A DNA stretch of 32,000 nucleotides from Candidatus Saccharimonadota bacterium (GCA_041661045.1 JBAZVE010000001.1:120001-152000), one strand, 5' to 3'. Shown: positions 611 to 30,038, counted from the stretch's first letter. Numbers and translations are program-made. The notes: generated from the sequence alone by a model not told the origin.

Positions 611-702
611 TCTAAACCACAAACTGTCATCCAATCCTGACGACAGTAAATGGGCCAAGAACCTGGACAAAGACGGGGGGGGAGAGAATAGTGTAGGCAA
701 TT
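611..702 (+). promoter_or_regulatory. Upstream leader copy A, shared with the RHS toxin gene (42-nt perfect core 611-652 plus ~50 nt diverged)
   Basis: 611-652 tctaaaccacaaactgtcatccaatcctgacgacagtaaatg is the exact reverse complement of 13886-13927. Similarity continues (cctggacaa, G-run, gagaatagt, ggcaatt) up to the ATG at 703. Confidence 0.65.
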
Positions 703-1323
703 ATGAAAATACCCATTCACAAGATAAGTGCTCTCCTCCTCCTTCACCTGATGGCTTTTGGTTTGGGCGTCAGCAGTGCTTCTGCTTATGATCTATATGG
801 TTATCAGTGGGACAGTAGCTCAGTGTCTTATTATATCAATAGTGCTTTTGCGAGTAGTTTTAAAACTGCGATGAAGACTTCTGATGCAAGTTGGGACGCC
901 GCAGGTGCGGATTTTAGCTTTAGTTATGCTGGGACTACGAGTTCAAATCCAAATGTTTTTTCTGGATATACTTCAGATTCCAGAAGTTCGATTGGTTATT
1001 ACAATGATGGATCTACGGGAGATGTGGCAGGTACTTGGGGCTTTACATCAGGTAGCTCCTTGACCGAAATAGATACCACCTTTAATACTTATTATGGGTT
1101 CACAACTATAGGAACTTCCGGCCAGTATGATGTGCAAAATACTATGACCCATGAATTTGGCCACTGGCTCATGCTAGATGATCTTACTTATAATGGAAGC
1201 CCGTCCTATTGTGCCTCTTCAGCGATGTCTACTATGTGTGGTCGCACTTATCCTGGAAACACCTATCAAAGGTCACTCAGAACCGATGATAAAAATGGTA
1301 TCAAGGCTATTTATGGGACTTGA
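703..1323 (+). CDS. Secreted matrixin-like (M10/M7-type) zinc metalloprotease
   Basis: Signal peptide MKIPIHKISALLLLHLMAFGLGVSSASA. Zinc motif HEFGHWLMLDD (HExxHxxxxxD). Matrixin-type C-terminal DDKNGIKAIYG. Confidence 0.85.
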   Translation: MKIPIHKISALLLLHLMAFGLGVSSASAYDLYGYQWDSSSVSYYINSAFASSFKTAMKTSDASWDAAGADFSFSYAGTTSSNPNVFSGYTSDSRSSIGYYNDGSTGDVAGTWGFTSGSSLTEIDTTFNTYYGFTTIGTSGQYDVQNTMTHEFGHWLMLDDLTYNGSPSYCASSAMSTMCGRTYPGNTYQRSLRTDDKNGIKAIYGT

Positions 1324-1340
1324 TTTATAACTTATAAAAT

Positions 1341-1931
1341 ATGGCATTGAACAGTAAAAACAGCGTGTTAATCCTTAGTCTCGGTACATTTTTGGCTTTA
1401 GGCTTTCTTTCCTCGAATTTTCTTTTTAAGAATAGGGCTATCCCAGTGACTAACGAGCCACCTACTACGGTGTCTTTTCATGCCTTAAGTATTGCGCGCG
1501 ATCTTGATTTGTACACACAGAGTGCCTCTCTCATTGTAATTGGCAGGGTAACAAAGGTGGGTGAACCTTATCTGGAAGATCAAGGTCTTGGTAGTAGACA
1601 AGAGGTCGAACTGGAACTGAGTGAAGTTCTGAAAGGAGATAGAAGTATGACCACGGTAAATGTGCTTGTTCGCGGCTATGAAATCGTTGAAGTTGATGGA
1701 GATGAGGCAACCATTATCCCCGGCAATGAGCCACCTTTATTTGTAGCGGGAGAGTATGTTCTCCTCTTCTTAGGAACAACCAGTCAGGGGGAATATGTGT
1801 CTTTTGCAGGCCCTTATGGTAAATACTTAATCGACAACGAGTTGAATGTGAGCAGCAGTGGCGACTTTTCAATGTCTCTCGAGGAGCTAAAGGAAAAGAT
1901 TAATGCAGTTTTGCAGTCTCAGCCCTTCTAA
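1341..1931 (+). CDS. Hypothetical N-terminally membrane-anchored protein, probably co-transcribed with the metalloprotease
   Basis: 196-aa ORF starting 17 nt after the protease stop. N-terminal hydrophobic segment VLILSLGTFLALGFLSSNFLF. No recognisable family. Confidence 0.55.
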   Translation: MALNSKNSVLILSLGTFLALGFLSSNFLFKNRAIPVTNEPPTTVSFHALSIARDLDLYTQSASLIVIGRVTKVGEPYLEDQGLGSRQEVELELSEVLKGDRSMTTVNVLVRGYEIVEVDGDEATIIPGNEPPLFVAGEYVLLFLGTTSQGEYVSFAGPYGKYLIDNELNVSSSGDFSMSLEELKEKINAVLQSQPF

Positions 1932-1972
1932 AAACCTGGTTTTTTTGGTATAATTAGGGGATTCATTTTGCT
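1923..1972 (+). promoter_or_regulatory. 50-bp repeat copy 1 with extended -10 promoter (TGGTATAAT) and palindrome AAAAACCTGGTTTTT
   Basis: cccttctaaaaacctggtttttttggtataattaggggattcattttgct is identical to 15596-15645. TATAAT at 1949-1954. It overlaps the stop codon of 1341-1931 and precedes the gene at 2013. Confidence 0.6.
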
Positions 1973-2012
1973 ATGTATGATGTTATTTTGCATTGCTTTT
2001 TAACATGATATA

Positions 2013-3233
2013 GTGCAAAATGAAATCATGGATGCTCAAGAGCCACAATACCATCGATCTATAGAACTCCCATCGAGCAGCTTTCTGCTCTTTGGACCAA
2101 GAGGTGTGGGTAAAAGCACATGGCTTCGTAAGACACTACCGAAGGATTCGCTTTTCATTGACCTTTTACACTATCCAACTTATTTAAGCCTAAGTAGAGA
2201 CCCAAGCCATCTGGAAGCCTTAATCAACACCAAAGATCCTCCACAGTGGGTTTGTATCGATGAAGTACAGAAAATTCCGCCCATTCTAGATGAAGTCCAC
2301 CGACTCATTGAGACTTATGGACTTCGTTTTGCCCTGAGTGGATCATCAGCCCGTAAACTCAAAAGAGGTGGAGCAAATCTATTGGCTGGCAGAGCATTGG
2401 CAATGGAAATGGAAACATTTTGCAGCGAAGAATTGGGGGAAGACTTTCATCTGGAAGAATCTATAGAGTGGGGAACCCTGCCCTTGGTCCAGAAAAAACT
2501 CAAAGAGAAGCTGACCACCGAAGCCATGGACACGCTTGAGACCTATGTATCGAGCTATCTTCGTGAAGAAATTAAGGAAGAAGGATTGGTACGCAAAGTA
2601 GATCCATTTTTGCGTTTTCTGGAAATAGCGGGCCTCATGAATGCCGAACAAATAAATTTGAGTGCTATAGCTCAACAAGCTGGCGTTCCAAGAAGTTCTA
2701 CAGAAACATACTTTTCAATTTTAGAAGACACCTTACTTACCTTTCGCTTACCAGCTTATCGACCACGAGTAAAAGTCCGGGAACAAACTCACCCCAAGCT
2801 CTATTGGTTTGATTCGGGAGTGGCCAGAGCGGCGGCCGGACTTTTGCGTGACCCAACAGACTCCACCTGGCAAGGTAAAGCTCTGGAGACTCTGATCTAT
2901 CATGAGCTCAGGGTCTACAATCAAAAATCCGGAAAACACAGGTCGATTTCATTTTATAAAACCAGCTCCGGACAAGAAATCGACTTTTTGATAGAAACTC
3001 AAAAAACAAGCTCCGACCAAAAAGCCGAAGTGGTACTCATAGAAGTAAAAAGATCAAAAACATGGAATGCCCGTTGGGAAAATCCTATGCGTTCCCTGAT
3101 GAGAATGAATAAAATGAGAGTTAAATCCGCTTATGGTGTGTATATGGGGAAAGAGTCTCTGTTTAAAGAAAATTTATCTATTCTACCAGCCGAGATTTTT
3201 TTAAAAAAACTCCATCAAGGAGAAGTTTTTTAG
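2013..3233 (+). CDS. AAA+ ATPase of the AAA_14/DUF4143 type (COG1373-like)
   Basis: Walker A LLFGPRGVGKSTWL, Walker B-like WVCIDEVQKIP, C-terminal DUF4143-like region. GTG start at 2013 (alternative ATG at 2028). Confidence 0.8.
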   Translation: MQNEIMDAQEPQYHRSIELPSSSFLLFGPRGVGKSTWLRKTLPKDSLFIDLLHYPTYLSLSRDPSHLEALINTKDPPQWVCIDEVQKIPPILDEVHRLIETYGLRFALSGSSARKLKRGGANLLAGRALAMEMETFCSEELGEDFHLEESIEWGTLPLVQKKLKEKLTTEAMDTLETYVSSYLREEIKEEGLVRKVDPFLRFLEIAGLMNAEQINLSAIAQQAGVPRSSTETYFSILEDTLLTFRLPAYRPRVKVREQTHPKLYWFDSGVARAAAGLLRDPTDSTWQGKALETLIYHELRVYNQKSGKHRSISFYKTSSGQEIDFLIETQKTSSDQKAEVVLIEVKRSKTWNARWENPMRSLMRMNKMRVKSAYGVYMGKESLFKENLSILPAEIFLKKLHQGEVF

Positions 3234-3400
3234 GTGACGAACTTAGCTTTTGGCGGGCTTACGGCTCGTTCTTGATTCCTCCAAATCTCCCCAAATTGTG
3301 GCCTAGGCCAGGTTAGCACATGCGGTAATGTTTTTGTGCAATGTCAAATGCTTGAGAAATGGCTTATAGAAGCTATTATTTGTTCTTCCTGTGAAATTCT

Positions 3401-3991
3401 ATGCTCTCAAAAGAACAGATGCTGCAAGCGCTCACTTCCCTGGGGTTCAGACCCAATGAAGCGCAGGTGTACCTCACGGTTTTAGAGCTCAAAGAAGCGC
3501 TCCCCGGTACTGTGGCGAGACGCTCCAAGCTCAAACGGTCCACCATTTATCTCCTTCTGGAGGGCTTGGAACAAAAGGGGCTTTTACAAAAGGTGCGGAA
3601 AAATGGAAATATCGTGTTTAAGGCCGGCTCACCGGAATCTTTTATTGCTCAAGAACAAAAGAAAAGCGAAGTACTCCAATCTTCCCTCAAGGCTCTCAGC
3701 TTTTCTCTCCCAAAGCTCTTTGCGACCTATGCTGCGGAGCTTTGTCCGTCAGAAATAACCATTTTTAAAGGAGAAAAAGGAGTCGAAAAAATTCTTTCGG
3801 AGTTGGGTAGGGACCGCAAGATGCTCTTGAGCTGGGATGAAAATGGAAAACGACAAAAAGGCATCATTGGTGTGTTTAATATTTATAGAGACAAGGTGGC
3901 CATTGTATCCCTCAAAGACGAGCTTGGTGTTCTCATTCAAAACGAACACATCGCCAAGGCCCAACGAGCGGTTTTTGAGAATATTGGATAA
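3401..3991 (+). CDS. TrmB-family HTH transcriptional regulator
   Basis: N-terminal wHTH typical of TrmB: LGFRPNEAQVYLTVLELKEALPGTVARRSKLKRSTIYLLLEGLEQKGLLQKV. Confidence 0.8.
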   Translation: MLSKEQMLQALTSLGFRPNEAQVYLTVLELKEALPGTVARRSKLKRSTIYLLLEGLEQKGLLQKVRKNGNIVFKAGSPESFIAQEQKKSEVLQSSLKALSFSLPKLFATYAAELCPSEITIFKGEKGVEKILSELGRDRKMLLSWDENGKRQKGIIGVFNIYRDKVAIVSLKDELGVLIQNEHIAKAQRAVFENIG

Positions 3992-4182
3992 CTACAGCCT
4001 GTTATCTCCCTTCAACACCAGCCAAACTCTTTTAAGTTACCTACAAATTTTTTGAAATGAAAGCCAGCGTACCAGAAGTATAGCCTTTTGTTATATTTCT
4101 TGTTGGTGTGACGGATTTTTATACCCTATCCAAATTCCACCTTTGAATTTATAAGTTTGATTCATGACTATTAGAAGTCTGT

Positions 4183-4530
4183 TTATTTTTCAAATGCAAG
4201 CCCTAAAAATTCTTTTTTTGAGCCAGTAAAAATTGTGCCTTTTTTATTTAATGTTTTATTAATCTTGCCTGTTTTTACTGCAATGTAAGCTGCATCACAT
4301 TCGGGGTCGTAACTTATACTGAGTTCATCTCCTTTTGAAAAATGAAAATCATTTACTATACATTTAGACTTGGTTTGATCCATCATGTCCAAAAGCTCTA
4401 TCCCTATAGTTTCACCAAGTGAATCTAAATCCACCATCAAATCAATGTTTTCAATTTTATGTGCACCCTCTGATGGTTTAAACTGGATTGAAAAAGTTTT
4501 ACCATTTTCAACAATATTTGGGTATTCCAT
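4183..4530 (-). CDS. DUF2283-like small protein (two degenerate units)
   Basis: Motifs LSISYDPECDAAYIAV and DLDSLGETIGIELLD resemble the DUF2283 pattern (YDxExDxxYI ... GxxxGIExL). Confidence 0.5.
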   Translation of the reverse strand: MEYPNIVENGKTFSIQFKPSEGAHKIENIDLMVDLDSLGETIGIELLDMMDQTKSKCIVNDFHFSKGDELSISYDPECDAAYIAVKTGKINKTLNKKGTIFTGSKKEFLGLAFEK

Positions 4531-4566
4531 GTGGGCTATGAGTTACTTAACTGTACAGGCTTGCCA

Positions 4567-4878
4567 CTAAGCAATGGGCAACAAAATGTATCTAGTCAAA
4601 ACCACACAAAGCAACGCGTATAGAACTATTAAAAGAACTTCTTCTCCTCTACTGATCGTTATCAACTTATTTTTTTTCTTATAGTAGTGAAAATAAAATC
4701 CGAAGAGAAATGCCATTAATAAAACAATACTTAATCTAACTAGGTTTGCCGCATCTATGTTTTCATAACTAAATCTATTGAACACGAGATAGCTAAGAAT
4801 AGAGAAAAAGACAAAGCCAGACACGAAAGTGGCACATAGAAGCAGCAAGTGTTTTAGAGCTTTGAAATGAGATTTCAT
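4567..4878 (-). CDS. Small membrane protein (about 3 TM helices)
   Basis: 103-aa ORF with hydrophobic stretches LLLLCATFVSGFVFFSILSYLVF, LVRLSIVLLMAFLFGFYF and VLLIVLYALLCVVL. No family recognised. Confidence 0.5.
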   Translation of the reverse strand: MKSHFKALKHLLLLCATFVSGFVFFSILSYLVFNRFSYENIDAANLVRLSIVLLMAFLFGFYFHYYKKKNKLITISRGEEVLLIVLYALLCVVLTRYILLPIA

Positions 4879-4896
4879 AATTTAGTTGTTAGATAT

Positions 4897-5289
4897 TTAT
4901 TCAACAGTATCGGGAACTTTTAATTCTTGGCCAACTTGAATCTGATTAGGGTAGTTGGATTTTGCTAGCGCATGAAGTTTTTTCGACACAGTCCTGGCTT
5001 CATCCCATGTGTAGCCAGTCATAGTATGCATTTCTTGTGGATCAACGATTTCTGCTGATATGTCAAAAATCTTCGACATAAGAATGATGTCATTTTCATC
5101 TATGCTAATCTCGATTACTTCATCTTCAGATCGATGACTTCCTATGAAATCACTAATCCTCCTACATTCTTCTTCTGATAGTTGGGTCCTTTGAATAAGC
5201 TCACTTAAACCAAAGGCGCCCAAGGGTACAGCTATAACTCTAATTATAATTTCTAATTCATCATGGGTAAGTAAAATTAATTTTGTCAT
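4897..5289 (-). CDS. Hypothetical acidic cytoplasmic protein with a weakly LysM-like C-terminus
   Basis: 130-aa ORF starting 18 nt upstream of the next gene's start. C-terminus ...SNYPNQIQVGQELKVPD resembles the end of a LysM domain. Confidence 0.5.
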   Translation of the reverse strand: MTKLILLTHDELEIIIRVIAVPLGAFGLSELIQRTQLSEEECRRISDFIGSHRSEDEVIEISIDENDIILMSKIFDISAEIVDPQEMHTMTGYTWDEARTVSKKLHALAKSNYPNQIQVGQELKVPDTVE

Positions 5290-5447
5290 AATGTGGTGAG
5301 TTAAAAACTATTAATGCAAATCATTGTCAAAAAAATCCTTTTCTTTTTCAGGTTGGAAGGCTGTCCCCTGATCTACATTGTTCGGATCGTGGATCACCAC
5401 AATAGTAATGATTTAAAAAATACCCGAGATTCCCTGCGAAAGTTTAT

Positions 5448-5747
5448 TTAGCTACTCTGTAACTTTACTCCACAGCGCGGGCAATGTTTAGGGTTAAAAT
5501 TCTTCCTCAAGTAAAATTCGCAAGCTGGGCAACGCCAATTTTTGAATGTAAAAACAACGGACCCCAAGAACATAAATACAAACAACATAGTCCAAGCGTC
5601 GTTTGGGGCACCAAGGAAAGTAATCCCCTCATCACTATTATTGAAAAATTGGAATCCAAAAACAATCACAAGCATCAGTGGCGTGACTATATAATATTGT
5701 TTTCGCTTTCTTTCCAGAAAATTTTGGATGATTTCGTACTCCTGCAT
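5448..5747 (-). CDS. Small membrane protein with a C-terminal zinc ribbon
   Basis: Two hydrophobic helices, then CPACEFYL...HCPRCGVKL (CxxC-N13-CxxC). Confidence 0.55.
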   Translation of the reverse strand: MQEYEIIQNFLERKRKQYYIVTPLMLVIVFGFQFFNNSDEGITFLGAPNDAWTMLFVFMFLGSVVFTFKNWRCPACEFYLRKNFNPKHCPRCGVKLQSS

Positions 5748-5756
5748 AATGTGGTC

Positions 5757-6296
5757 TTATTTTCTTGCTCTAAGTAATAATTTTACTTGAAGTAAATACA
5801 TTGGAATAAGTAACAACAATGAAATGGGAGATAACACTACTGTTACAAAAGAGAAGCCAAATATCAGTTCGACCCAGCCCGTTTTTTTCGTCAACCCCCC
5901 CATGGGATTTTTTAATTGGATTAAACTATAACCATGTAAAATGGTAAGCAAACCATATGTTATTCCAAAAGCTATATAAGCAGACGGATACTCATCGAGT
6001 TTTGAGGGATATGTGCTAATTTTTGGTAGATATACAAGAAGATCGTATGAAATATTAACCAAGATCAATAAAAAAGAGGAAACAGCGGTAACTTTACTAT
6101 TTTGTATTTGCCCCAAATAAATGAAGCCAGACAAAAACAGAGCATAACTAACGATTGATAAGAAAATCAGGGGGCCTAAGTTGAACTCAGGGAAATATGA
6201 ACCACCCTTGGCTTCTACTAGAAGTGTTAAAGGCACGCTTGAGATTAGTGATACTAACCCCGAGAAAGCAGCTAATTTAAAAAGATTTTTCTTCAT
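5757..6296 (-). CDS. Polytopic membrane protein; candidate immunity partner of the orphan RHS tip
   Basis: 179-aa ORF starting 7 nt after the stop of the orphan cassette. Five to six hydrophobic segments. No family recognised. Confidence 0.55.
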   Translation of the reverse strand: MKKNLFKLAAFSGLVSLISSVPLTLLVEAKGGSYFPEFNLGPLIFLSIVSYALFLSGFIYLGQIQNSKVTAVSSFLLILVNISYDLLVYLPKISTYPSKLDEYPSAYIAFGITYGLLTILHGYSLIQLKNPMGGLTKKTGWVELIFGFSFVTVVLSPISLLLLIPMYLLQVKLLLRARK

Positions 6297-6303
6297 AGTG
6301 CAT

Positions 6304-7248
6304 TTAGTTAGTATTTTCTTTTTCCGATTCTACCGGTATTCGAATCTCTTCACCAACATTAATAGTATTTGGATCTTCAAATCCATTAAACTCTGCAATT
6401 TCTTGATAGTCATCTCCAAAAAGTTCGTACATCGTATCGCCAGGTTGAACTGTATATACAGAATAGCCTCCCTCTTCATTATATGTAAGATCTTTTTCTT
6501 CTCCAAAAACAGTAATTAAGGTTTGTTCATAAACAAACATCCCAATTCTTACATACCAAGGTGCTTGGCCCTTTGTTGAGTGCCAGAGTACATCGTCCAT
6601 ATTGTTACTTATATCGCCATCATTGTGGTCGTTAGTTGGTCCGGAATTTATAAGGTCGCCAGAGTCACCTGCAGAAGGGATATCGCTAAAAAATGTTAGT
6701 AAATAACTCACAAATATTCCGATTGGAGTTTCTCCATCCGGATCTATATAGACAATTGGGTTATTTAAAGAATAAGAATAAAAATTCAACATCTGTGGGT
6801 CGAAGATTTTATTTTTCTTTAGAAATTCATTCATATCATTCGTGAATGTGAATTTCCTTTCAGCAAGGTCATCCAACTGTGCCGGATCCTGGCTGGAGAA
6901 TCTTCCTATCTCACTGTCATACCACCGGGCTTCGAAGTAGTAGAGGCCGAGGTCTTCATCGAGCTCTTTGTCTGTGAAGGAGTGCTCTGCGGGAGGCTCT
7001 CCGGTGCCGTCGTCCAGGGGAGTGTTTTGGAGCTCAGAGCCGTAGGGATAGTAGTCGTAAAGCTGGGTTACAAAACCATCCTCGTTCGTGATGAGGGCGG
7101 TTCCTCCCAAGTGGTCCTGGTGGAAATAGGAGAGGACTCCGTCTTCCAGTGCAGCCACCCTCTGGCCCCCGGCGAAGAGATAGCTGGTGAGGGTGCCGGG
7201 AGACACCGGTTCCGTTCCGCTGCCATCCGCTTTGCCGCGGAGTTCCAT
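6304..7248 (-). CDS. Orphan RHS C-terminal cassette: RHS core end plus a 141-aa variable tip with a LysM domain
   Basis: The frame stays open and homologous to the main RHS up to 7398 (NFNTAHTYSWNIKNQLASSGSKSFSYDASG...), bounded by an in-frame TGA at 7399-7401. The first ATG is at 7248. Core FTDKELDEDLGLYYFEARWYDSEIGRFSSQDP...NFYSYSLNNPIVYIDPDGE. LysM YTVQPGDTMYELFGDDYQEIAEFNGFEDPNTINVGEEIRIP. Confidence 0.8.
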   Translation of the reverse strand: MELRGKADGSGTEPVSPGTLTSYLFAGGQRVAALEDGVLSYFHQDHLGGTALITNEDGFVTQLYDYYPYGSELQNTPLDDGTGEPPAEHSFTDKELDEDLGLYYFEARWYDSEIGRFSSQDPAQLDDLAERKFTFTNDMNEFLKKNKIFDPQMLNFYSYSLNNPIVYIDPDGETPIGIFVSYLLTFFSDIPSAGDSGDLINSGPTNDHNDGDISNNMDDVLWHSTKGQAPWYVRIGMFVYEQTLITVFGEEKDLTYNEEGGYSVYTVQPGDTMYELFGDDYQEIAEFNGFEDPNTINVGEEIRIPVESEKENTN

Positions 7249-7433
7249 GAAGCGGTTGATGATGTAGTCCGTTGTGCCTTTTGTGCTGTCTGCCGTTTTG
7301 TAGCGGCTGCCTGAAGCATCGTAGGAGAAGGATTTAGAGCCGCTGGAAGCCAGCTGGTTCTTAATGTTCCAAGAATAAGTGTGGGCGGTGTTGAAATTTC
7401 AAGGAGCGATGATCTGAATTGATGGGGCACTTT

Positions 7434-8054
7434 TCACCATGAAAAAGAATTCTTAATGATTTTACCCAAAATATCCAACCAATTCAGCTCAGTGTCTGCA
7501 CCCACTTCGTAACAAGTACGAGCTTTCAAACAATCCTCTCCCGTGAGATCCATTTCAAACACCGCCCGATCAGTTTCAGGTATCTCTTCTAGAGATAAGT
7601 AATATTCCGCTTCACCACTTGTTATATCAAGCACAACAAACCTGGGGAGATCATTTTGGTCATCATACATTAGAATCTTTCCATTCGAAGTATCCACTCC
7701 TCCCCAGTAGCTTATATTTCCCTCTGCATCCGTTCCCGTACCCCTCTCAACATTTCCTTCTATGTATAGTTTATCTTCATGAAGTCTATACCAGTACAAG
7801 TATCGAACCAAATAATCATCATACTTAAAATCCATCAATTGGAGTTTCTCCATATCTGTGGGCCATCTCCAAACTTGGAACCTTCCATCACTAAAATGAA
7901 TATATTTATCTTGATCGTATATCTCATACTTTAAATTGGGATCTTTTTCAATGAAGATATAGGTTTCCAAGCAACCCCTAAAAAAGACTACTCCTAGAAG
8001 GACAAGGGCGATAATACCAACTGTCTTAGCCGTTTTTCTAGAAAGCTTATTCAT
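7434..8054 (-). CDS. N-terminally anchored 206-aa protein; candidate immunity protein of the main RHS tip
   Basis: ATG at 8054-8052 lies inside TATGAATAA, overlapping the RHS stop (8049-8047). Begins MNKLSRKTAKTVGIIALVLLGVVFFRGC. The longer 7434-8123 ORF would overlap the RHS gene by 77 nt. Confidence 0.65.
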   Translation of the reverse strand: MNKLSRKTAKTVGIIALVLLGVVFFRGCLETYIFIEKDPNLKYEIYDQDKYIHFSDGRFQVWRWPTDMEKLQLMDFKYDDYLVRYLYWYRLHEDKLYIEGNVERGTGTDAEGNISYWGGVDTSNGKILMYDDQNDLPRFVVLDITSGEAEYYLSLEEIPETDRAVFEMDLTGEDCLKARTCYEVGADTELNWLDILGKIIKNSFSW

Positions 8055-11000
8055 AGGTGTAATCAAAGTTAATGGATTCAGTAAATTCAGATATGAAGCC
8101 TGTGGTTTGTGCCGCAGCCGCACCAGTATTTAGTGCATCATATGTAGCCCCACCACTGTATTCAAATCCTGCATCGAAATGATACTTATCTGAAATGGAC
8201 ACATCTAAATCCCACGCACCATTTTCCAATTGGCTTCCCGTAACCTGCATCCCGGCTGTACCAATGGACATTTTCAAATCGGATGTTTCATTGAGACGCA
8301 GTCCCCTCTGCCCATCGGTACCTTCAATGGAAGTTTGCCCATTAAACTCTGCATTAGAAACAATTTCACCAACCTTGGATTGAAACTCATCCGTCCCCTT
8401 AATTGAATCAATCACATTCCCCCATTCAGACTGATTCCCTTCATTGATGCTCACGCTTCCGGGGTTCAGTTCAAGGGAGTGGGATAAGAGACTTGATGTG
8501 ATTGGGTTTGAAAACTGAAGACCCCATGCCAGTGTTAAACCTGCCGTATAGATTTCCCGCACACCTGGCACAAAAAATGTTGCCAGGTAGGTAGTTGTAG
8601 ATAACTCTCCCGTTGGATCTGTAATATTTACCGGATTATTCCTGCTGTAACTGTAGAAGTTCAAACTCTGCGGATCTGTGAGAATTTGGAAGATGCGGTC
8701 ATCCAGCTGGGCCGGGTCCTGGCTGGAGAAACGGCCTATGGCGCTGTCATACCACCGGGCTTCGAAATAGTAGAGGCCAAGGTCTTCATCGAGTTCTTTG
8801 TCGGTGAAGGAGTGGTCGGCGGGGGCAGGGCCGGAGCCGTCGTCCAGGGAGCTATCGAGGAGCTCGGAGCCGTAGGGATAGTAATCGTAAAGCTGGGTGA
8901 CGAAGCCTTCTTCGTTGGTGGTGAGGGCGGTGCCTCCCAAGTGGTCCTGGTGGTAATAAGTGAGGGCAGCATCTCCCACAGGAGTTTCCGGAGGGATTTT
9001 AAGTGCGGCCACTCTTTGGCTTCCCGCAAAGAGGTAATAGAGCTCCGTTCCATCGGAAGCGGGTTCGGAGCCGCTGCCATCCGCCTTGCCACGGAGTTCT
9101 CCGTAGCGGCCGAGGTAATAGTCCACGGTTCCCCTGGCAGAGTCCACCGTCTTCCAGCGGGTACCAGTGGCATCGTAACTGAAGGATTTACTTCCACTGC
9201 TGCTGAGCTGATTCTTTCTATCCCAGCTGTAGGTGTGAGCGGCATTGCCGGTGAGGTTTCCCTTGCTGTCGTAGGTGTATGCTATGCCATCCACAGAAGT
9301 CACGGCGTGGGGATTGGCGCCGCTGTGAGTGCCGGAAGAAGAACCGGTGCCCTCATAAAGCAGGCTGCCAATGTCGCTCTTGTACACCATGTTTCCAAGG
9401 CTGTCATACTCATAAGTCTCACTGTAGTCTCCTCCGCTTAGGCCGGTGGTCTCTGCGGAGAGCAGGCGATTCAAGTCATCGTAGGCATAGGAAATGGTTT
9501 TGGCCGTGGGGCTTGTGCTCGTGTCCAGAATCTCCAAAATGTTCCCGACATTGTCGTAGCTGTAGGAAAGATCCTGAATTTCCGTCCAGGAAGTGCTGGT
9601 GAAGAGAGGATCATAAATGCCCGTGGTGCTTTTGCCTGTGAGGCGATATGCCTGAGCGGGGTCGTAGACATTGGTGGTCACGGTGCCGTTCCCGTAAGTG
9701 GTGCTTGCCGTTTGGGAAGAGGGAGAATAGTCCATGTCGGAAACGATGTCTCGTAAAGTAGCGCCTGTCCCTTCGGTTACTTTTTCAAGAAGACCGGCTG
9801 TGTTGTATTCGTAATTTACGGTTGCTGCAAAAGAGGGATACGCAATCTTTTTCAGACGGCTGAGGACATCGTATTCATATTGAAAAATATACGGGATGGT
9901 GTCGAGCTTTCTTGTTTCTTTTGCAAGGTTCCCGAGGCTGTCGTATTTATCATTGATCACCGAGAAATTTGTCATCAAGATTTTGTGGATTTTGCCTACC
10001 CCATTGATCGCAGTATCGTAGACAAAGGAAACATCTTTGGCAGAAGTTCCGGCATCCCAATCTTCAAAAACCATCCGATTGAGCGGATCGTAGCCCCATG
10101 TGAGCGACTGGCCCGCGGGGTCCACTTGGGAGACTAGATTCCCATTTTTATCGTAGGTGTAAGTCCATTCTCCAAAATCCCCTTCGGCCGGATCATGGAG
10201 ATCTTCTTGCAGGGTTTTGCGCCCCAAAGAATCGTAGCCGAAGTTTCTTAAGTTGCCCTGGCTATCGGTAAGAGTGAGGAGCAGGCCACGGTCATCATAA
10301 TCGTAAGTCGTTGTGTAAGTATCTATTCCATTCTTCTCTCGTACGGCACTCAAAGCTCCGGCGGCGTTATAGAGATAGGTTTTGCTGTTTCCATTCCCAT
10401 CCGTGACCTCTTCCATCCATGGGGAATAGTCATGTGTTTCCGTAGAGACGGGGGTCACCACGGTGAGGGGCCGACTGAGTGCATCGTAAGACATTTCTGT
10501 GCTGTACGCAGAGGCGTCTCTACCAAATATGCTGCTTGAAGTTTCGTAAGGAAAACTTTGGCTGGCAAGGTTTCCCCGTTCGTCGTACCAAAAGTCTACG
10601 GTCGTGTAGACCCCGCCCTCTGCTGAAGTATTGCTTTGGATGGCCCGTCCGAGGCCGTCAAAATAACTTACGGTTTCCATGGAAATGCCATCCACCGTGC
10701 TTTCCGTGGAGACGGAGCTTGGGAAGGAGTCGTCATCGTAGCTGCTTGTAGACACCAGCACCGAAGTCCCAAAGGTGGGATGCGGAATGGAGCTTGTTAA
10801 CACTCGCCCAAAGCCGTCGTAAGTGTTTGAGCGCGTAAAGCCATTTGCGTCCACGGAGCTGAGGAGTTGTCCGGTAGCTGCTTCGTATACGGTACTCGTT
10901 GTTTGTGAAAGGGCATTCGTTGTGCTTGCTGGGTAAAGATTGTTTGAATCATAGTTCATGTCCAGCGCGTTTCCCTTGGCATCCACTACTCGCTCAACGA

Positions 11001-13821
11001 GTCCATAAGCATTGACTGTGTAGGTGGAGCCAAACCATTGATTCCCTTCACTGAGCCAAGATTTTTCACTCGTAAGATTCCCCGTGGAAACATTCCCGAG
11101 CGGGAGGCCGTCGTAGGTGCGACGGCTTTTAGCGATTGCGGAGCCGCTTGCATCTTTCAAGATCTCTTCTGAGATTTTGTTGCGAATTAGCCCGGAGCTG
11201 TCCGCTGCGTACGCATAGGATAGTACGGTTTTTTCGTGCGCATGAGGAATATCCACAAATCCTCCGCTGCTGTCCGCCGCCACTTCACCGAAGTTTGTAA
11301 CTTTAAATATATTTCCGTCCGCATCGTATTGATAAGTTGTAGCTTTGTCCTTGTGAGCGCTGCCACCGAAGTCCATGGAAACACTGGCGGTTTTGTACAC
11401 AAAATCATTTTCATAGCCAAGATCCAAGGTTTCCCACGAGTCCCAGACTCTTTGGAAAAGATTGCCGGACTCATCATAAACTTCCGTTTTATAGGCGCGG
11501 CCGATGAGTGGAAACTCTTCTTGATGGTAATAAGAAATGGTTTCCTTTCCCTCCTCACTGCGCGACACCGTTTCGAAGCCGGCGAACTGACGGTTCATTT
11601 CATCTTCATACAAATATTTTCCACCGGAGTAGTCGTAGGTGATGGTGCTTTCTTCCCCAAGGCCATCCGAAGTGGTGACACTGGAGACCAAGTTCATCAC
11701 AAAGGGCATGGCGGGGTTATCGAAAGAGGTGGAGGGCGCATAGGAAACTGTGGTTTCCGCCCCTTTGGAGTGATGAATGGTTTCGAGCAGTTCTGGAGTG
11801 GCGTTGTTGAGATACATTCTTTTAGTGCTGCCCCCATGGGACTCAGAAAAAACCACATCCGCAAAGTTATCCCCATCCACATCAAAAATCTGAACGCCTT
11901 TTGGGGTTCTATAACCTTCTGCAAAACTCACGGGGACCGTATAAGCACTGCCTTCGTCCCATCCCGTCCCATCTCCCTTATTAATATATACGGCATTCTC
12001 AATGCTGGAATCTGCCGAGTAAACAATGTCCGCTAAGCCATCTCCATTGACATCCACCATTTCTGCAACATCCATCATGATATCTCCGCTATCCCAGAAA
12101 TAGATTGGGATGCTATAACTACTTTCTTCAGTCCACCCCGTTCCATCGCCACGATTGAGATAAACAGATTGGTAGGGACTCCCTTGATACCTTGATTCTA
12201 TAATATCCACCAAGCCATCTCCATTAATGTCTGCCAGTTTTACACCCTCGTCATCCTCTCCTTCAGAATTAAAAATAACTGGTATGGATATCTCGCTCAC
12301 TTCTTCCCATGTTTCCATTTCTGGATTGAAGAGGTAGATATTCTTTGAAATACCACCGTGACTCAAAGACTGAACAAAGTCAGGGAAAGAGTCTCCATTG
12401 ATGTCCATAACACGAATCCCCTCATCGGCCATATAACCACTATTGAACCTTAGTGGAATCGAGTAAGTGGTGTCTTCAACCCAAGAGGAAGACGCCTCGT
12501 CAAAGATGTAGCCTACCCGAACATCGCTAGAGGATTCCATGGAAGCATAAACGATATCGTTGAATCCATCTCCGTTCAAATCACTCATACGCGTACCCCT
12601 CATATAATTTCCTCCTGTTCCCCAAAAAGAGACAGGAATTGAATAGCTTGTATCTTCGGTCCAGCCTGTTCCATCGCCGTTATTCACATAGACCTCTCGG
12701 TAAGTTCTTCCACTATCGTAGTAGGAATTGAGAAGATCCATAAATCCATCCCCATTGACATCACTGATGTCCACACCTTTATCTTCATTTCCTCCCTCCA
12801 CATAAAAATACACCGGGATCTCGTAGCCGCTTACTTCTTCCCAGCCTTTTTCGCTCTCGGAATATTCAAAACTTGTAGGGTGGAGCGTGCTTACTTCACC
12901 AGTCGTGCTTTGAGCGGATTCCGTGACAGAAGAGAGTAAGGATTGAACGGTGTCGTCCGGGGTGGAGTAATCGAGACTGTATTTTCGAGTCCATACCCCA
13001 TCAACAAATGCGGTGATCTCACTGACTCGATAATCGGTTTGAACTTCAAAGCCGGTATTGTAAAAAGAAGAAACATCTTCTCGGCTCTCCAAAGTGAATT
13101 CAATGGCAAAAGATCCATCGGTGGATCCATGTCCGGTATAATGGATGCTTTCTGGATAAATTTGCCCATTCTCTTCAAAGTATTCGTATCGTACAAAGTT
13201 ATCATTGGAGTCTCGCACTTCCTCAAGCATCCACTTGTAGACGCGGCTTGCATCTGCCGGGTCCTCTTGCCTACTTTCAGCGGCTGCCCCAAAACTATAA
13301 ACGGTTCCGGACTTATCTGTAACAGACCAAGAGTTGTCCGAATTGAATGAGTAATTTAGAAAAGAGCCATCCTCGACTTTACTGCTGTACTCCCCGTAAG
13401 GACTTCCACTTATGGGAACAAGCTCTCCACTGAGTGAAGAACTAAAATTGTTTTCGTCGTACATGGTATTTACACCGGTTTTGTTGAGTCGCGTGATTGC
13501 AGGGATACCCAGTGACCAACCGGATCCATAAAAACTATCCCAGCCCATGCCTTGGCTGTTGTAGTTTAGGCTGAGAGAGGGCTGCAAGCCACTGCGCCCC
13601 GCAGGCAGAGTGAGGGGAAGAGAATAAGTGAAAGCTCCACTAAAAGAGCTGTCTTGCGCACCTTGGTCCAATCGAACCCGACTGTTATTGATTTCGTAAG
13701 TCTGATCATAAAACCCTTCGTTGTTATTTGTAGCATCTGCAAAGCTTCTAGGCGCGAAACTTGTGAATGCAAAAAAACTCAGCAGAAGGGTGGATAGGGC
13801 TCTCACTTTTTGGCTGAGCAT
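8047..13821 (-). CDS. Secreted SpvB / FG-GAP / RHS-repeat polymorphic toxin (TcB-TcC-like fusion), 1,924 aa
   Basis: Signal peptide MLSQKVRALSTLLLSFFAFTSFAPRSFA. SpvB-like FTYSLPLTLPAGRSGLQPSLSLNYNSQG..GWSLGIPAITR. Six DxNGDGxxD FG-GAP/VCBS repeats (aa ~350-660). Many YD repeats. RHS core end ...YYFEARWYDSAIGRFSSQDP...NNPVNITDPTGE. Confidence 0.95.
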   Translation of the reverse strand: MLSQKVRALSTLLLSFFAFTSFAPRSFADATNNNEGFYDQTYEINNSRVRLDQGAQDSSFSGAFTYSLPLTLPAGRSGLQPSLSLNYNSQGMGWDSFYGSGWSLGIPAITRLNKTGVNTMYDENNFSSSLSGELVPISGSPYGEYSSKVEDGSFLNYSFNSDNSWSVTDKSGTVYSFGAAAESRQEDPADASRVYKWMLEEVRDSNDNFVRYEYFEENGQIYPESIHYTGHGSTDGSFAIEFTLESREDVSSFYNTGFEVQTDYRVSEITAFVDGVWTRKYSLDYSTPDDTVQSLLSSVTESAQSTTGEVSTLHPTSFEYSESEKGWEEVSGYEIPVYFYVEGGNEDKGVDISDVNGDGFMDLLNSYYDSGRTYREVYVNNGDGTGWTEDTSYSIPVSFWGTGGNYMRGTRMSDLNGDGFNDIVYASMESSSDVRVGYIFDEASSSWVEDTTYSIPLRFNSGYMADEGIRVMDINGDSFPDFVQSLSHGGISKNIYLFNPEMETWEEVSEISIPVIFNSEGEDDEGVKLADINGDGLVDIIESRYQGSPYQSVYLNRGDGTGWTEESSYSIPIYFWDSGDIMMDVAEMVDVNGDGLADIVYSADSSIENAVYINKGDGTGWDEGSAYTVPVSFAEGYRTPKGVQIFDVDGDNFADVVFSESHGGSTKRMYLNNATPELLETIHHSKGAETTVSYAPSTSFDNPAMPFVMNLVSSVTTSDGLGEESTITYDYSGGKYLYEDEMNRQFAGFETVSRSEEGKETISYYHQEEFPLIGRAYKTEVYDESGNLFQRVWDSWETLDLGYENDFVYKTASVSMDFGGSAHKDKATTYQYDADGNIFKVTNFGEVAADSSGGFVDIPHAHEKTVLSYAYAADSSGLIRNKISEEILKDASGSAIAKSRRTYDGLPLGNVSTGNLTSEKSWLSEGNQWFGSTYTVNAYGLVERVVDAKGNALDMNYDSNNLYPASTTNALSQTTSTVYEAATGQLLSSVDANGFTRSNTYDGFGRVLTSSIPHPTFGTSVLVSTSSYDDDSFPSSVSTESTVDGISMETVSYFDGLGRAIQSNTSAEGGVYTTVDFWYDERGNLASQSFPYETSSSIFGRDASAYSTEMSYDALSRPLTVVTPVSTETHDYSPWMEEVTDGNGNSKTYLYNAAGALSAVREKNGIDTYTTTYDYDDRGLLLTLTDSQGNLRNFGYDSLGRKTLQEDLHDPAEGDFGEWTYTYDKNGNLVSQVDPAGQSLTWGYDPLNRMVFEDWDAGTSAKDVSFVYDTAINGVGKIHKILMTNFSVINDKYDSLGNLAKETRKLDTIPYIFQYEYDVLSRLKKIAYPSFAATVNYEYNTAGLLEKVTEGTGATLRDIVSDMDYSPSSQTASTTYGNGTVTTNVYDPAQAYRLTGKSTTGIYDPLFTSTSWTEIQDLSYSYDNVGNILEILDTSTSPTAKTISYAYDDLNRLLSAETTGLSGGDYSETYEYDSLGNMVYKSDIGSLLYEGTGSSSGTHSGANPHAVTSVDGIAYTYDSKGNLTGNAAHTYSWDRKNQLSSSGSKSFSYDATGTRWKTVDSARGTVDYYLGRYGELRGKADGSGSEPASDGTELYYLFAGSQRVAALKIPPETPVGDAALTYYHQDHLGGTALTTNEEGFVTQLYDYYPYGSELLDSSLDDGSGPAPADHSFTDKELDEDLGLYYFEARWYDSAIGRFSSQDPAQLDDRIFQILTDPQSLNFYSYSRNNPVNITDPTGELSTTTYLATFFVPGVREIYTAGLTLAWGLQFSNPITSSLLSHSLELNPGSVSINEGNQSEWGNVIDSIKGTDEFQSKVGEIVSNAEFNGQTSIEGTDGQRGLRLNETSDLKMSIGTAGMQVTGSQLENGAWDLDVSISDKYHFDAGFEYSGGATYDALNTGAAAAQTTGFISEFTESINFDYTYE
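8050..8604 (-). other. Variable C-terminal tip (185 aa) of the RHS protein, after DPTGE
   Basis: Sequence after DPTGE (LSTTTYLATFFVPGVREIYTAGL...INFDYTYE) has no similarity to the orphan tip beyond the first ~12 residues and matches no family I recognise. Confidence 0.7.
8605..9249 (-). repeat. RHS core-end block homologous to the orphan cassette at 6730-7398
   Basis: The protein alignment is continuous from AHTYSW to DPxGE. DNA stretches are near-identical, e.g. gtcataccaccgggcttcgaa(a/g)tagtagaggcc(a/g)aggtcttcatcgag. Confidence 0.85.
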
Positions 13822-13834
13822 AGCACATTTATTA

Positions 13835-13927
13835 AATTGCCCTTACTATTCTCCACTGCCCCCGCCCTTGTCCAGGCTTTCGGCACATTTACTGTCGTCA
13901 GGATTGGATGACAGTTTGTGGTTTAGA
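13835..13927 (-). promoter_or_regulatory. Upstream leader copy B (inverted copy of 611-702) in front of the RHS gene
   Basis: 13886-13927 is the exact reverse complement of 611-652. Diverged similarity continues to 13835, and the RHS ATG follows at 13821. Confidence 0.65.
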
Positions 13928-13985
13928 AACTGGACGACATGAGCTTTTAGGCGTAGAGTACACTTAAATTTACCCCTTCCCCCTC

Positions 13986-15584
13986 ATGAAAAATATTCTT
14001 ATTGCCCTTCTGAGTCTTATGCTTGCCGTCCCTGGTGTGCTGGCGTCCGCCAATGCTGATATGAGCGACTCTGAGCTGGGAGAATATTTTATATTTGAGA
14101 CGGGGACCTGGTGGGATTATGTGAATTATATAGACACCGCTTCCGACTACGACACCTCAGAGATTACTTTTGTGGATGATATTGAAGATGCCACGACGCG
14201 TGCAGAGAGACTTCCCTGCAGAATTTCTCAATGTTTTAGCGTGGGTATGGGGCAAATCTACATCGAGTACTTTATAGAAGATGGGAAAATTTACATGGAT
14301 ACTTACGACGGGTACGACACGAATGATTTTCTGGTTTTCTCTCTTGATGGACTCGAGGATGTCCAAGTTGATGCATTGTGGGGATATCTTTTGGGTTATG
14401 ACAGTTTGAGTGGTTACGAGACCAGCATGCAATGTAGTGTGGACTTCGGAACTTACGCCTATCAAGGCTACGAAGGTGATTCCATCCAACACACTTGCAG
14501 CACTTTCCTAAAAGGTCCGGATGAAGTGGAACACCAAGTGGTGAGCTCCGAGTACTACTTGAGAGGCGTTGGGAAAGTCTTAACCGAGACCAAGCTCTAT
14601 CAGGACGGCGAGTGGCAAATCACTTATAGCCTTGTGCTCAATGAAACCAGCGTTGATTTGGAGGAAGTTGAAGGTCTGACTGAAGAAGCGGATGGAAAGG
14701 AAGTGATCGATACGGTGGTGGAAGAAATGAATGAAGAAGAAGAGGAAGAAGAGGAAGAAGAGGTGGTTTTGGCGGCGGAAGAAAGTAGCTTCTCCGATGT
14801 CGAATCGGATCACGATAACTACGCAGCGGTTGAATATCTCTACGAAGAAGGTGTGATTGGAGGATATGAGGATGGATCCTTTAAACCTGAGAATACCGTG
14901 AATCGTGCCGAGCTTCTGAAGATTTTGGTGGAAGGCCAGGGCATCACACCGGATGCAGAGCTCTATAAAAACTGTTTCCCCGATGTCACTACAGACTGGT
15001 ATGCCAAATATGTATGCTACGCCAAAAGCCAAGCGTGGATTTCCGGCTATAGCAACGGATACTTTCTTCCTGCCGATCCTGTAAATAAAGTGGAGGCCCT
15101 CAAAATGCTGCTCAATTCTCAAAGTATTGAGATCACCGTTGGAGACCAAAGCTCATTTGATGACTTCTCTGAGAATGAATGGTTCGCCCCTTATGTGGCC
15201 AAAGCTCAAGCACTTGGGATTTTGGAGGAAACCGGCAGTAGTTTTCATGCCGATGAGGATCGAACGCGTGGTGGCATCAGTGAAAATTTGTATCGGCTTC
15301 TCTTGAGTCTTCAGGTTGATGGCGTCTCCAGCGCCATGTCTGAAACTACTTGTCTGCAATACGACGCTTCCTTCGACCTGGATGAGTTCGAAGCAGAAAC
15401 GGAGGACATTATGGAGGCGTACGGATTTGAAGACATTTGGGCGATCGATGCCTTTATTGACCAGATTAGGGGCCTGGATATCTTTGAGCTTCTGTCTGCC
15501 CAACTGGAGATGGACCTTGAAGAAGAGTGTGGAGAATCCGTTGATGATGCTTCCGCGCTGGCTGAGGCCATGTTGGAGGAATAA
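13986..15584 (+). CDS. Secreted cell-surface protein with three SLH domains and an acidic linker
   Basis: Signal peptide MKNILIALLSLMLAVPGVLASANA. SLH motifs FSDVESDHDNYAAVEYLYEEGVIGGYEDGSFKPENTVNRAELLKIL, FPDVTTDWYAKYVCYAKSQAWISGYSNGYFLPADPVNKVEALKML and FDDFSENEWFAPYVAKAQALGIL. Confidence 0.85.
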   Translation: MKNILIALLSLMLAVPGVLASANADMSDSELGEYFIFETGTWWDYVNYIDTASDYDTSEITFVDDIEDATTRAERLPCRISQCFSVGMGQIYIEYFIEDGKIYMDTYDGYDTNDFLVFSLDGLEDVQVDALWGYLLGYDSLSGYETSMQCSVDFGTYAYQGYEGDSIQHTCSTFLKGPDEVEHQVVSSEYYLRGVGKVLTETKLYQDGEWQITYSLVLNETSVDLEEVEGLTEEADGKEVIDTVVEEMNEEEEEEEEEEVVLAAEESSFSDVESDHDNYAAVEYLYEEGVIGGYEDGSFKPENTVNRAELLKILVEGQGITPDAELYKNCFPDVTTDWYAKYVCYAKSQAWISGYSNGYFLPADPVNKVEALKMLLNSQSIEITVGDQSSFDDFSENEWFAPYVAKAQALGILEETGSSFHADEDRTRGGISENLYRLLLSLQVDGVSSAMSETTCLQYDASFDLDEFEAETEDIMEAYGFEDIWAIDAFIDQIRGLDIFELLSAQLEMDLEEECGESVDDASALAEAMLEE

Positions 15585-15595
15585 TACTGACGCAC

Positions 15596-15645
15596 CCCTT
15601 CTAAAAACCTGGTTTTTTTGGTATAATTAGGGGATTCATTTTGCT
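15596..15645 (+). promoter_or_regulatory. 50-bp repeat copy 2 with extended -10 promoter (TGGTATAAT at 15619-15627)
   Basis: Identical to 1923-1972. It lies 11 nt after the SLH gene stop and ends 3 nt before the cyclase GTG. Confidence 0.6.
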
Positions 15646-23760: not shown

Positions 23761-23835
23761 GCGGGTGTCGTATAGTGGCTATTACCACAGCCTTCCAAGC
23801 TGTTGAGAGGGGTTCGATTCCCCTCACCCGCTCCA
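23761..23835 (+). tRNA. tRNA-Gly (anticodon UCC), CCA encoded
   Basis: Acceptor GCGGGTG/CACCCGC, anticodon stem ACAGC/GCTGT with loop CTTCCAA, T arm AGGGG-TTCGATT-CCCCT, discriminator T, CCA. 75 nt. Confidence 0.9.
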
Positions 23836-23871: not shown

Positions 23872-24000
23872 AACCGTAGTTGAAGGAGGGAAAGAGAACC
23901 CGTAGGGTTCGATACTCCCTAGGAGTGAGTGTCGCGGAAATCTGTGCGCACGCACACTTTTTGAATGGCGGATGGCTCTCTTAAGCCGAAATTTTGACCA

Positions 24001-24024
24001 AAATCTGTGCCCGGGCACAGATTT
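24001..24024. repeat. 24-nt perfect palindrome AAATCTGTGCCCGGGCACAGATTT; its half-site also occurs at 23938-23947
   Basis: The palindrome is self-complementary over all 24 nt. aaatctgtgc recurs as a direct copy 63 nt upstream. Confidence 0.8.
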
Positions 24025-24062
24025 CCATGACCGAGCGACGACGGGAGAGTGAGCGAAGCGAT

Positions 24063-25357: not shown

Positions 25358-25398
25358 GAGGGGCAATTTGATACATCAAAAACCCTGCTCCTTCAAAA

Positions 25399-25415
25399 AG
25401 GTTCTAATAGTGTCT
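25399..25415 (-). promoter_or_regulatory. Island upstream motif, degenerate copy (M1)
   Basis: Plus strand aggttctaatagtgtct matches the first 17 nt of the 31-nt motif with one mismatch. It sits upstream of a putative TTGAAG-N17-TATCAA promoter of the 24131-25357 gene. Confidence 0.5.
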
Positions 25416-25909: not shown

Positions 25910-25938
25910 TTTGCCTTGCGGATGCTGCTCCCGCAGGT

Positions 25939-25969
25939 AGGTTCTAATAGCGTCTATAGTGCAGCTCCA
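25939..25969 (-). promoter_or_regulatory. Island upstream motif copy M2 (31 nt)
   Basis: Plus strand aggttctaatagcgtctatagtgcagctcca differs at one position from 30008-30038. Confidence 0.6.
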
Positions 25970-29990: not shown

Positions 29991-30007
29991 TCCCGTGTCT
30001 CCAAAAA

Positions 30008-30038
30008 AGGTTCTAATAGCGTCTATGGTGCAGCTCCA
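30008..30038 (-). promoter_or_regulatory. Island upstream motif copy M3 (31 nt)
   Basis: Plus strand aggttctaatagcgtctatggtgcagctcca lies just upstream of the -35 of the 552-aa gene promoter. Confidence 0.6.

Follow-up and report, generated by a model that had tools for sequence, protein, structure and literature searches.

A shared promoter module with an upstream palindrome, predicted in front of a secreted metalloprotease operon and an RHS toxin gene

Why should a secreted protease and a large RHS-family toxin, two otherwise unrelated genes, be preceded by the same piece of DNA? The question arises from a stretch of 32,000 nucleotides, hereafter called the window (GCA_041661045.1 JBAZVE010000001.1:120001-152000, deposited as Candidatus Saccharimonadota bacterium; all positions are counted from its first letter). 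A first-pass annotation had noticed an element of about 92 nt in front of both genes and had read it as one promoter or 5'-UTR module, possibly a cis-acting RNA leader. The answer that we find fairly probable from the sequence comparisons below is a DNA-level promoter module native to the operon of the metalloprotease (MP) and its partner p196, with a palindrome 16 nt before a sigma-70-type promoter and with a second, inverted copy that would have been captured in front of the RHS gene.

The labels originally given to the two genes, metalloprotease and RHS, are upheld by their Pfam domains. MP (703-1323, + strand) matches Peptidase_M10 (PF00413) at 24.5 bits, the cut-off being 24, and carries a signal peptide and the zinc motif HEFGHWLML; H150, H154, and D196 are invariant in 28 homologues. 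The profile match together with an HExxHxxxxxH-type motif places MP among the M10 (matrixin-like) zinc metalloproteases. Its homologues number 47 among 5.8 billion proteins, and the close ones come from MAGs of Candidatus Peribacteria or 'Gracilibacteria', in the candidate phyla radiation. MP is followed in the operon by its constant partner p196 (1341-1931, +). The second gene (8047-13821, - strand) encodes an RHS-family polymorphic toxin of 1924 aa with SpvB, FG-GAP, TcdB_mid, RHS repeats, and a C-terminal tip; the Pfam matches (RHS_repeat at 2e-29, SpvB at 7e-23, FG-GAP_3, and TcdB_toxin_midN) are those of a polymorphic toxin. Divergent from it, on the other side of its copy of the element, lies an SLH-domain gene (13986-15584, +). 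Further genes in the window (RNase H, TsaB, an RsmI-like methylase, and a SpoIID-amidase) fit a small genome of the candidate-phyla-radiation type.

The repeat holds up in every respect in which it was checked. Positions 611-652 are, as first reported, the exact reverse complement of 13886-13927. The first copy (copy A, 611-702, +) is the upstream region of the MP-p196 operon, and the second (copy B, 13835-13927, -) lies inverted before the RHS gene, where it scores 75.5 bits with a covariance model of the element (R1). A repeat finder delimits inverted arms of 69 nt at 611-679 and 13859-13927 (91% complementary), and BLASTN of the window against itself aligns 611-702 with 13927-13835 at 86% over 93 columns; the similarity thus reaches 702 and 13835, nearly to each start codon. 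The three-quarters identity that had been estimated by eye beyond the identical part agrees with a global alignment, in which 42 identical columns are followed by 13 differences (gaps included) in 52, or about 75% identity. The distances to the start codons are likewise borne out, with 50 nt between 652 and the ATG at 703 and 64 nt between 13886 and the ATG at 13821.

Within the window, the 25-nt core ACTGTCATCCAATCCTGACGACAGT occurs exactly twice with up to three mismatches allowed, and it occurs in none of 100 dinucleotide-preserving shuffles. Exact scans for this core in genome, metagenome, and viral contig collections, from which the source genome is absent, gave 0 matches each. Degenerate operator scans of the window (TGTCA-N8-TGACA with 1 mismatch, and a longer pattern with 3 mismatches) found no further copy of the module, returning the two copies and one intragenic match at chance level. 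The first-pass annotation had itself named a generic dispersed repeat as the finding that would undo its reading; with two copies in 32 kb and none in the collections or loci searched, the element does not behave as one. Independent support comes from a Logan contig (L001, from SRR18595301, k=31), the only public contig with the exact protease. It covers window positions 623-1952 and ends exactly k-1 = 30 nt inside the exact repeats 611-652 and 1923-1972, which is how a k=31 assembly is expected to behave at true repeats, and the repeat is hereby confirmed as genuine. A small open reading frame on the opposite strand of the core (MTVCGLEKK... in copy A and MTVCGLETGRHELLGVEYT* in copy B) was considered and rejected as coding sequence, being unconserved beyond the repeat.

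What does the element contain? The promoter-like pattern first proposed within the core, cTGtCA-N17-TAAATg, is unconserved, and the orthologous regions described below read GTGTTG...TTTTTT at that place. The best promoter candidate for the protease operon lies further downstream (664-692, +) and consists of a -35 hexamer TGGACA at 664-669, a spacer of 17 nt, and a -10 hexamer AATAGT at 687-692, with a predicted start at about 698-700. Its twin would serve the RHS gene (13845-13874, -), with TGGACA at 13874-13869, a spacer of 18 nt, AATAGT at 13850-13845, and a predicted start near 13838. Both candidates match the sigma-70 consensus at 9 of 12 positions and have spacers within the 17 ± 1 nt of such promoters. 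The protease mRNA is accordingly predicted to carry a leader of some 3-4 nt, making it leaderless or nearly so, and the RHS mRNA an AT-rich leader of about 17 nt.

Since transcription is predicted to start at the 3' end of the module, the 42-nt core, like most of the 92 nt, would be upstream, untranscribed DNA, and the element is predicted to be a promoter with an upstream palindrome and not a 5'-UTR. Of the earlier reading, the shared, promoter-bearing module therefore stands, and the labels leader, 5'-UTR, and cis-acting RNA do not, as most of the element precedes the predicted start. Transcription beginning downstream of the element had been named beforehand as evidence against that reading; for the 42-nt core, this is where promoter prediction, as opposed to mapping, puts it. 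The proposed search for a matching leader family in Rfam likewise brought none to light: the whole window at the gathering threshold gave tRNA only, and positions 400-800 at E≤10 gave nothing relevant. Co-regulation of the two genes, on the other hand, is still a reasonable expectation, because two unrelated genes carry copies of one promoter-containing module, even if the common RNA element once invoked for it falls away. The protease operon and the RHS toxin gene are probably transcribed from equivalent promoters and would answer to whatever acts at the palindrome.

Some smaller features of these promoters deserve mention. Start codons in the window (e.g., at 1341, 4878, 5289, and 5747) are generally not preceded by a Shine-Dalgarno-like sequence, and several predicted promoters of the window lie 6-25 nt from the ATG, which suggests leaderless or Shine-Dalgarno-independent initiation in this lineage. 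Our literature searches on leaderless or Shine-Dalgarno initiation in Patescibacteria and on Rhs in Peregrinibacteria found nothing relevant. The 17-nt spacer of the protease promoter contains a G8 homopolymer (675-682), and the 18-nt spacer of copy B reads G5-C-A-G at this place. Slippage in the G8 tract would alter promoter spacing, as is known for the porA promoter of Neisseria with its poly-G tract; no length variation shows in L001, the one independent contig.

The comparison with relatives in the Peribacteria carries much of the argument. Upstream DNA of protease orthologues was gathered from eight places and resolves into seven distinct regions, of which the window is the seventh; the MP identities of the others are 82% (L007/L091, 'MP1'), 78% (L006), 75% (L171), 65% (L003), 64% (L008/L175, 'MP2'), and 61% (L009). 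Copy A is orthologous to all of these, and the layout is common to 7 of 7: a palindrome of 25-26 nt, exactly 16 nt, a -35-like T[AGT]GAC[AGT], 17 or 18 nt, and a -10-like hexamer (AATAGT, GATAGT, TATAGT, GACAGT, or TAGATT). From the -10 to the ATG there are 6-10 nt in the window, L007, L008, and L009, and 27-29 nt in L003, L006, and L171. In L178, whose protease is 53% identical to MP, TAGACA, 17 nt, TAGAAT, 10 nt, and the ATG follow one another, and the palindrome is absent. Hexamers and spacing are kept in the seven lineages plus L178, and the flanks are unalignable; as neutral DNA cannot be aligned at 53-82% protein identity, the hexamers and the two fixed spacings appear to be under constraint.

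The gene on the upstream side of the element differs from relative to relative. It encodes a CHASE2 cyclase in L003, L171, and probably L006, a 181-aa protein in L007, the surface protein X in L008, and a 365-aa protein after RuvB in L009, where ClpB lies downstream. Whichever gene adjoins, the element always accompanies MP-p196 among the relatives bearing it; it follows the operon and not the upstream gene, so it is not simply the terminator of the latter. As part of the overall explanation, and with the same fair likelihood, the module would be the native regulatory region of the MP-p196 operon, travelling with it between contexts. The two genes are mobile in other ways, too. MP-p196 is a duplicating two-gene module, of which two diverged copies flank the cyclase gene in the closest relative (L091 2856-8842), tandem protease/partner arrays exist in a more distant one (L174 154-3555), and the pair is found in at least six different genomic contexts overall. 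In another more distant relative (L172 3483-9331), the protease gene lies directly downstream of Cas12a (Cpf1)-Cas4-Cas1-Cas2, and the upstream palindrome module is absent.

The palindrome is imperfect and occupies 623-647 in copy A, where it reads ACTGTCATC-CAATCCT-GACGACAGT and ends 16 nt before the -35 hexamer. In copy B it spans 13891-13915, 16 nt from the -35 hexamer of the RHS gene and 15 nt from a weaker -35-like hexamer that faces the SLH gene. A 6-bp stem had already been described here; it is present and extends in full over nine positions, one of them an A.C mismatch on the gene strand. The arms read TGTCATC...GACGACA in the window and GTGTTGT...ACAACAC in L003/L006/L171. Across eight sequences, 83% of the cells in the stem pair, versus at most 69% with shifted partners, and three pairs are compensatory; these figures and the fixed spacing come from seven related lineages only, and shared ancestry could account for part of them. 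In 6 of 6 relatives (L007, L008, L006, L171, L003, and L009), a run of T4-T6 follows 0-1 nt after the hairpin. The window copies have TAAATG instead (reading ...GACAGTAAATG) and thus lack the U-run after the stem that marks an intrinsic terminator. Gene-strand hairpins of the window/L091 clade reach -7.5, -4.2, and -7.6 kcal/mol (z of -1.2, -1.1, and -0.4) and are no stabler than those of shuffled sequences, compared with -9 to -12 kcal/mol in the L006/L003/L009 clade.

The missing T-run and the weak hairpin of the window clade argue against a pure terminator role in this genome, and we infer that the palindrome is a protein-binding site. Weak hexamers combined with a palindrome at a fixed upstream distance suggest, more specifically, the site of an activator. 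We rate such an operator as the likelier role here, ahead of an RNA terminator or insulator; the compensatory pairs and T-runs fit an RNA or DNA hairpin as well as a protein site. In copy B, a single site could even serve two divergent promoters, those of RHS and SLH. The latter is putative (13931-13959, +; TGGACG, 17 nt, TAGAGT); it has 8 of 12 consensus matches, lies below the scan threshold, and was read by eye.

If copy A is the native one, how did the RHS gene come by its own? The first-pass annotation had proposed looking for the element upstream of other genes. With R1, 342 kb plus 36 kb of loci were searched, including 18-20 kb around the protease genes of relatives, and in these 378 kb the MP-upstream copies and the RHS copy of the window are the only ones (62-86 bits, the next best match scoring 15). 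The upstream DNA of the RHS homologues L087 and L090 is unrelated to the module, and homologues of the RHS N-terminus share no more than 50% identity and occur in unrelated contexts. A protein search with the RHS fragment of L003, whose gene is interrupted by a scaffold gap and has its N-terminal part off the locus, gave no match. The RHS copy thus appears lineage specific and secondary, on the basis of these more distant RHS genes and not of the closest syntenic one (L003). The two window copies are also much more similar to each other than either is to the version in L007 or L008, so that the duplication is younger than the split from the closest available relative. Similarity of the RHS copy stops at GGCAATT, which in copy A forms the last 7 nt before the protease ATG, an endpoint that fits copying from protease to RHS, the direction that we consider the likelier one.

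The differences between the copies are far from evenly spread. All 13 lie beyond column 42 (P=2e-4 if scattered uniformly), and within the diverged half neither hexamer contains any (P=0.019), with CCTGGACAA, GAGAATAGT, and GGCAATT all intact. This pattern marks, as judged from the alignment, a promoter that has stayed functional in both copies. Of the identical outer 42 nt, 12 nt on the 5' side and 5 nt on the 3' side of the palindrome are variable among the orthologues. Identity of such flanks exceeds what selection on the site would maintain and suggests that the copies underwent gene conversion or recently exchanged sequence.

The surroundings of both copies have been rearranged. A 53-nt direct repeat (D5, 52 of 53 positions identical) brackets a 13.7-kb island that contains the RHS gene. 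The right-hand repeat (15593-15645, +) is the native promoter of the CHASE2-cyclase gene, with a predicted extended -10 TGGTATAAT, and is conserved before the cyclase in L008 and L003; the left-hand one (1920-1972, +) is its duplicate at the left edge of the island and supplies the last 4 codons of p196. Between them lie an AAA_14/DUF4143 ATPase gene, a TrmB-like regulator gene, low-GC small genes, an orphan RHS cassette, the RHS gene, copy B, and the SLH gene. Deleting 1973-15645 would restore the order X, MP, p196, cyclase, as in L008/L091; the 13.7-kb stretch behaves like an insertion that has a copy of a duplicated resident promoter on each side. The orphan cassette (6304-7430, -) itself shares 73% identity over 494 nt with the end of the RHS core (8697-9190) and is fused to a LysM domain, followed by the low-GC (33-38%) small genes at 4-7 kb; such genes beside an orphan cassette are the usual toxin/immunity graveyard of RHS loci.

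The operon of the window is orthologous to the module that stands between the cyclase and DUF1189 genes in L003, L006, L171, and L091, which implies that it was relocated as well. In the window, the CHASE2 cyclase and DUF1189 genes are convergent and their 3' ends overlap by 48 nt (17686-17733); as relatives keep MP-p196 between the two, this overlap would be the other scar of the relocation. Between the end of the surface-protein gene X and copy A lies a pseudogene fragment of a TrmB-like regulator (493-603, +), consisting of the last ~35 codons and 82% identical in nucleotides to 3897-3982 of the intact gene (3401-3991). It directly abuts copy A, so the left side of copy A is a rearrangement junction. 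The region seems to have been reshuffled repeatedly, with junctions that coincide with promoter modules. Several paths fit (tandem duplication, Campbell-type integration at D5, and L/L' inversion, L and L' being copies A and B), and it would take a closer relative to decide among them.

Put together, the explanation that we prefer runs as follows. A palindrome of 25 nt would be held 16 nt upstream of a moderately good promoter (TGGACA, 17/18 nt, AATAGT). After the split from the closest available relative, an inverted second copy would have been gained before the RHS gene, during regional rearrangements that also duplicated the promoter of the neighbouring cyclase. With the palindrome and both hexamers intact in the two copies, the protease operon and RHS would be left with equivalent promoters. 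The most serious competitor, which we hold to be a minority possibility, accepts the duplicated promoter and takes the palindrome for an RNA hairpin. On the 5' side of the protease cassette, this hairpin would serve as an intrinsic terminator or insulator against read-through from any gene upstream, would need no regulatory protein, and would have been carried passively to RHS. The T-runs of the six relatives, the three compensatory pairs with their surplus of pairing over shifted partners (83% against at most 69%), and the hairpins of -9 to -12 kcal/mol in the L006/L003/L009 clade all speak for it. It has to contend with window copies that put TAAATG in place of the T-run and yet retain the palindrome perfectly, with hairpins in the window and L091 that shuffling matches, with a strict 16-nt distance to the -35 hexamer that a terminator does not need, and with a hairpin at copy B that receives no read-through from any gene. 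Much less credible is a common RNA leader (5'-UTR or cis-acting element) that would be transcribed from cTGtCA-N17-TAAATg or from further upstream, exerting post-transcriptional control over both mRNAs. The presence of a stem-loop and of similarity almost to both start codons would suit such a leader. The core promoter that it presupposes is, however, unconserved in the orthologues, conservation after the core amounts to two hexamers 17/18 nt apart (the footprint of a promoter rather than of an RNA structure), the -10 lies a mere 6-7 nt before the ATG in L007, L008, and L009, and Rfam is empty even at E≤10.

The inverted arrangement of the copies raises the further thought that they are the ends of an invertible 13.2-kb segment, or recombination sites, and that the biology lies in flipping. 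Inverted repeats with 42 perfect nt do flank these 13.2 kb, the strand of RHS relative to the cyclase is opposite to that in L003, and the contrast between the perfect outer 42 nt and the 75% of the inner part suggests gene conversion or recent exchange. We nonetheless give this reading very little weight: a Pfam search of 30 window ORFs shows neither a recombinase nor an invertase domain, both promoters lie within the repeats and face inward, so that flipping would alter the promoter of neither gene, and relatives carry the element as a single copy before MP. Equally improbable is that the element is a dispersed repeat or miniature mobile element, or that it arose as an artefact of assembly; in favour of this one might cite the palindrome, the sharp outer boundary, and the position at rearrangement junctions. 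Against it stand the two copies in 32 kb with 0 exact matches in the genome, metagenome, and viral collections, the orthologous, single-copy, and syntenic occurrence with MP in relatives, the finding of neither a transposase nor a target duplication, inner halves that have partly diverged and that each run on into their own gene, and an independent assembly that branches at exactly these repeats.

How does the preferred reading, a resident promoter duplicated before a second gene, compare with known systems? The nearest known category is promoter duplication and capture, by which genes are well known to come under common control, and the locus resembles it in that the resident promoter region occurs twice, the second time just before the start codon of an unrelated gene, in that the hexamers are kept while the spacers have diverged, and in that the locus also holds a duplicate of another resident promoter (D5). 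It departs from the usual picture in the perfect homogenization of the outer 42 nt next to an inner half that is ~25% diverged. Invertons share with it the inverted repeats (611-679 and 13859-13927) around a segment with surface or antagonism genes; unlike in invertons, no recombinase was found, the segment measures 13 kb instead of a few hundred bp, and the inward promoters within the repeats leave no ON/OFF logic. A MITE or IS end is not matched either, given two copies in the window, single-copy and syntenic occurrence in relatives, and no transposase or target duplication found. An insulated cassette, with a Rho-independent terminator followed by a promoter, is matched by the stem-loop and T-run upstream of the promoter in the six relatives; it is not matched by window copies without a T-run, by short and AU-rich stems, or by an invariant distance to the -35 hexamer.

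There is also a likeness to class I activator-dependent sigma-70 promoters, which CRP-dependent promoters exemplify. The module shares with them suboptimal hexamers and a TGT...ACA-type palindrome that is fixed upstream, with its centre at about -64/-65. A CRP/FNR-type site reads TGTGA-N6-TCACA and is centred at -41.5, -61.5, or -71.5. The module differs in carrying TGTCA-N8-TGACR (TGTCA-N8-TGACG in the window) or GTGTTGT-N10-ACAACAC, with a centre out of phase with -61.5, and no CRP-family gene was seen. As with CRP, a link to cyclic nucleotides may exist, since the operon adjoins a gene for a CHASE2 adenylate/guanylate cyclase in most relatives, and a nucleotide-responsive regulator is an attractive idea in this neighbourhood. 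Going one step further, one could imagine a dedicated, possibly cAMP-responsive factor that acts at the palindrome and governs a small contact or antagonism regulon of protease, RHS toxin, and SLH protein. The cAMP part would follow from the conserved linkage of the module with the CHASE2 sensor adenylate/guanylate cyclase, and the perfect identity between the copies would be kept by selection together with gene conversion. We regard both the factor with its regulon and this account of the identity as speculative, each standing well short of an even chance. The TrmB-like gene (3401-3991) and its pseudogene fragment were also considered as the source of the cognate regulator and set aside as a weak idea, no TrmB homologue being found near the element in relatives.

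The type of event is ordinary (promoter duplication and capture), and established ideas stand; the specific module has not been described before. If the reading is correct, a secreted zinc protease operon and an RHS toxin would be switched on from the same promoter and operator in a Peribacteria cell, a small and tractable example of the coordinated control of weaponry or host interaction in an uncultivated lineage with reduced genomes. We know of essentially no cis-regulatory logic described for this episymbiotic lineage of the candidate phyla radiation. The comparison would also offer a promoter model for the clade (a TWGACA-like -35, 17/18 nt, an nAYAGT-like -10, leaderless or near-leaderless starts, and no Shine-Dalgarno sequence) and would cast promoter modules as both the breakpoints and the units of duplication where an RHS island is remodelled.

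Two further features were met elsewhere in the window. Another shared upstream motif, GGAGCTGCACYATAGACGCTATTAGAACCT (gene strand), occurs at 25385-25415, 25925-25969, and 29994-30038 and precedes three unannotated genes on the - strand (24131-25366, 25453-25851, and 28280-29938); the protease/RHS pair is therefore not the only case of a repeated upstream module in this genome. Finally, a perfect 24-nt palindrome, AAATCTGTGCCCGGGCACAGATTT, lies at 24001-24024, nested in a larger inverted repeat (23931-24031) between a tRNA gene (23761-23832) and the 3' end of the gene at 24131-25366, and is probably a bidirectional terminator.
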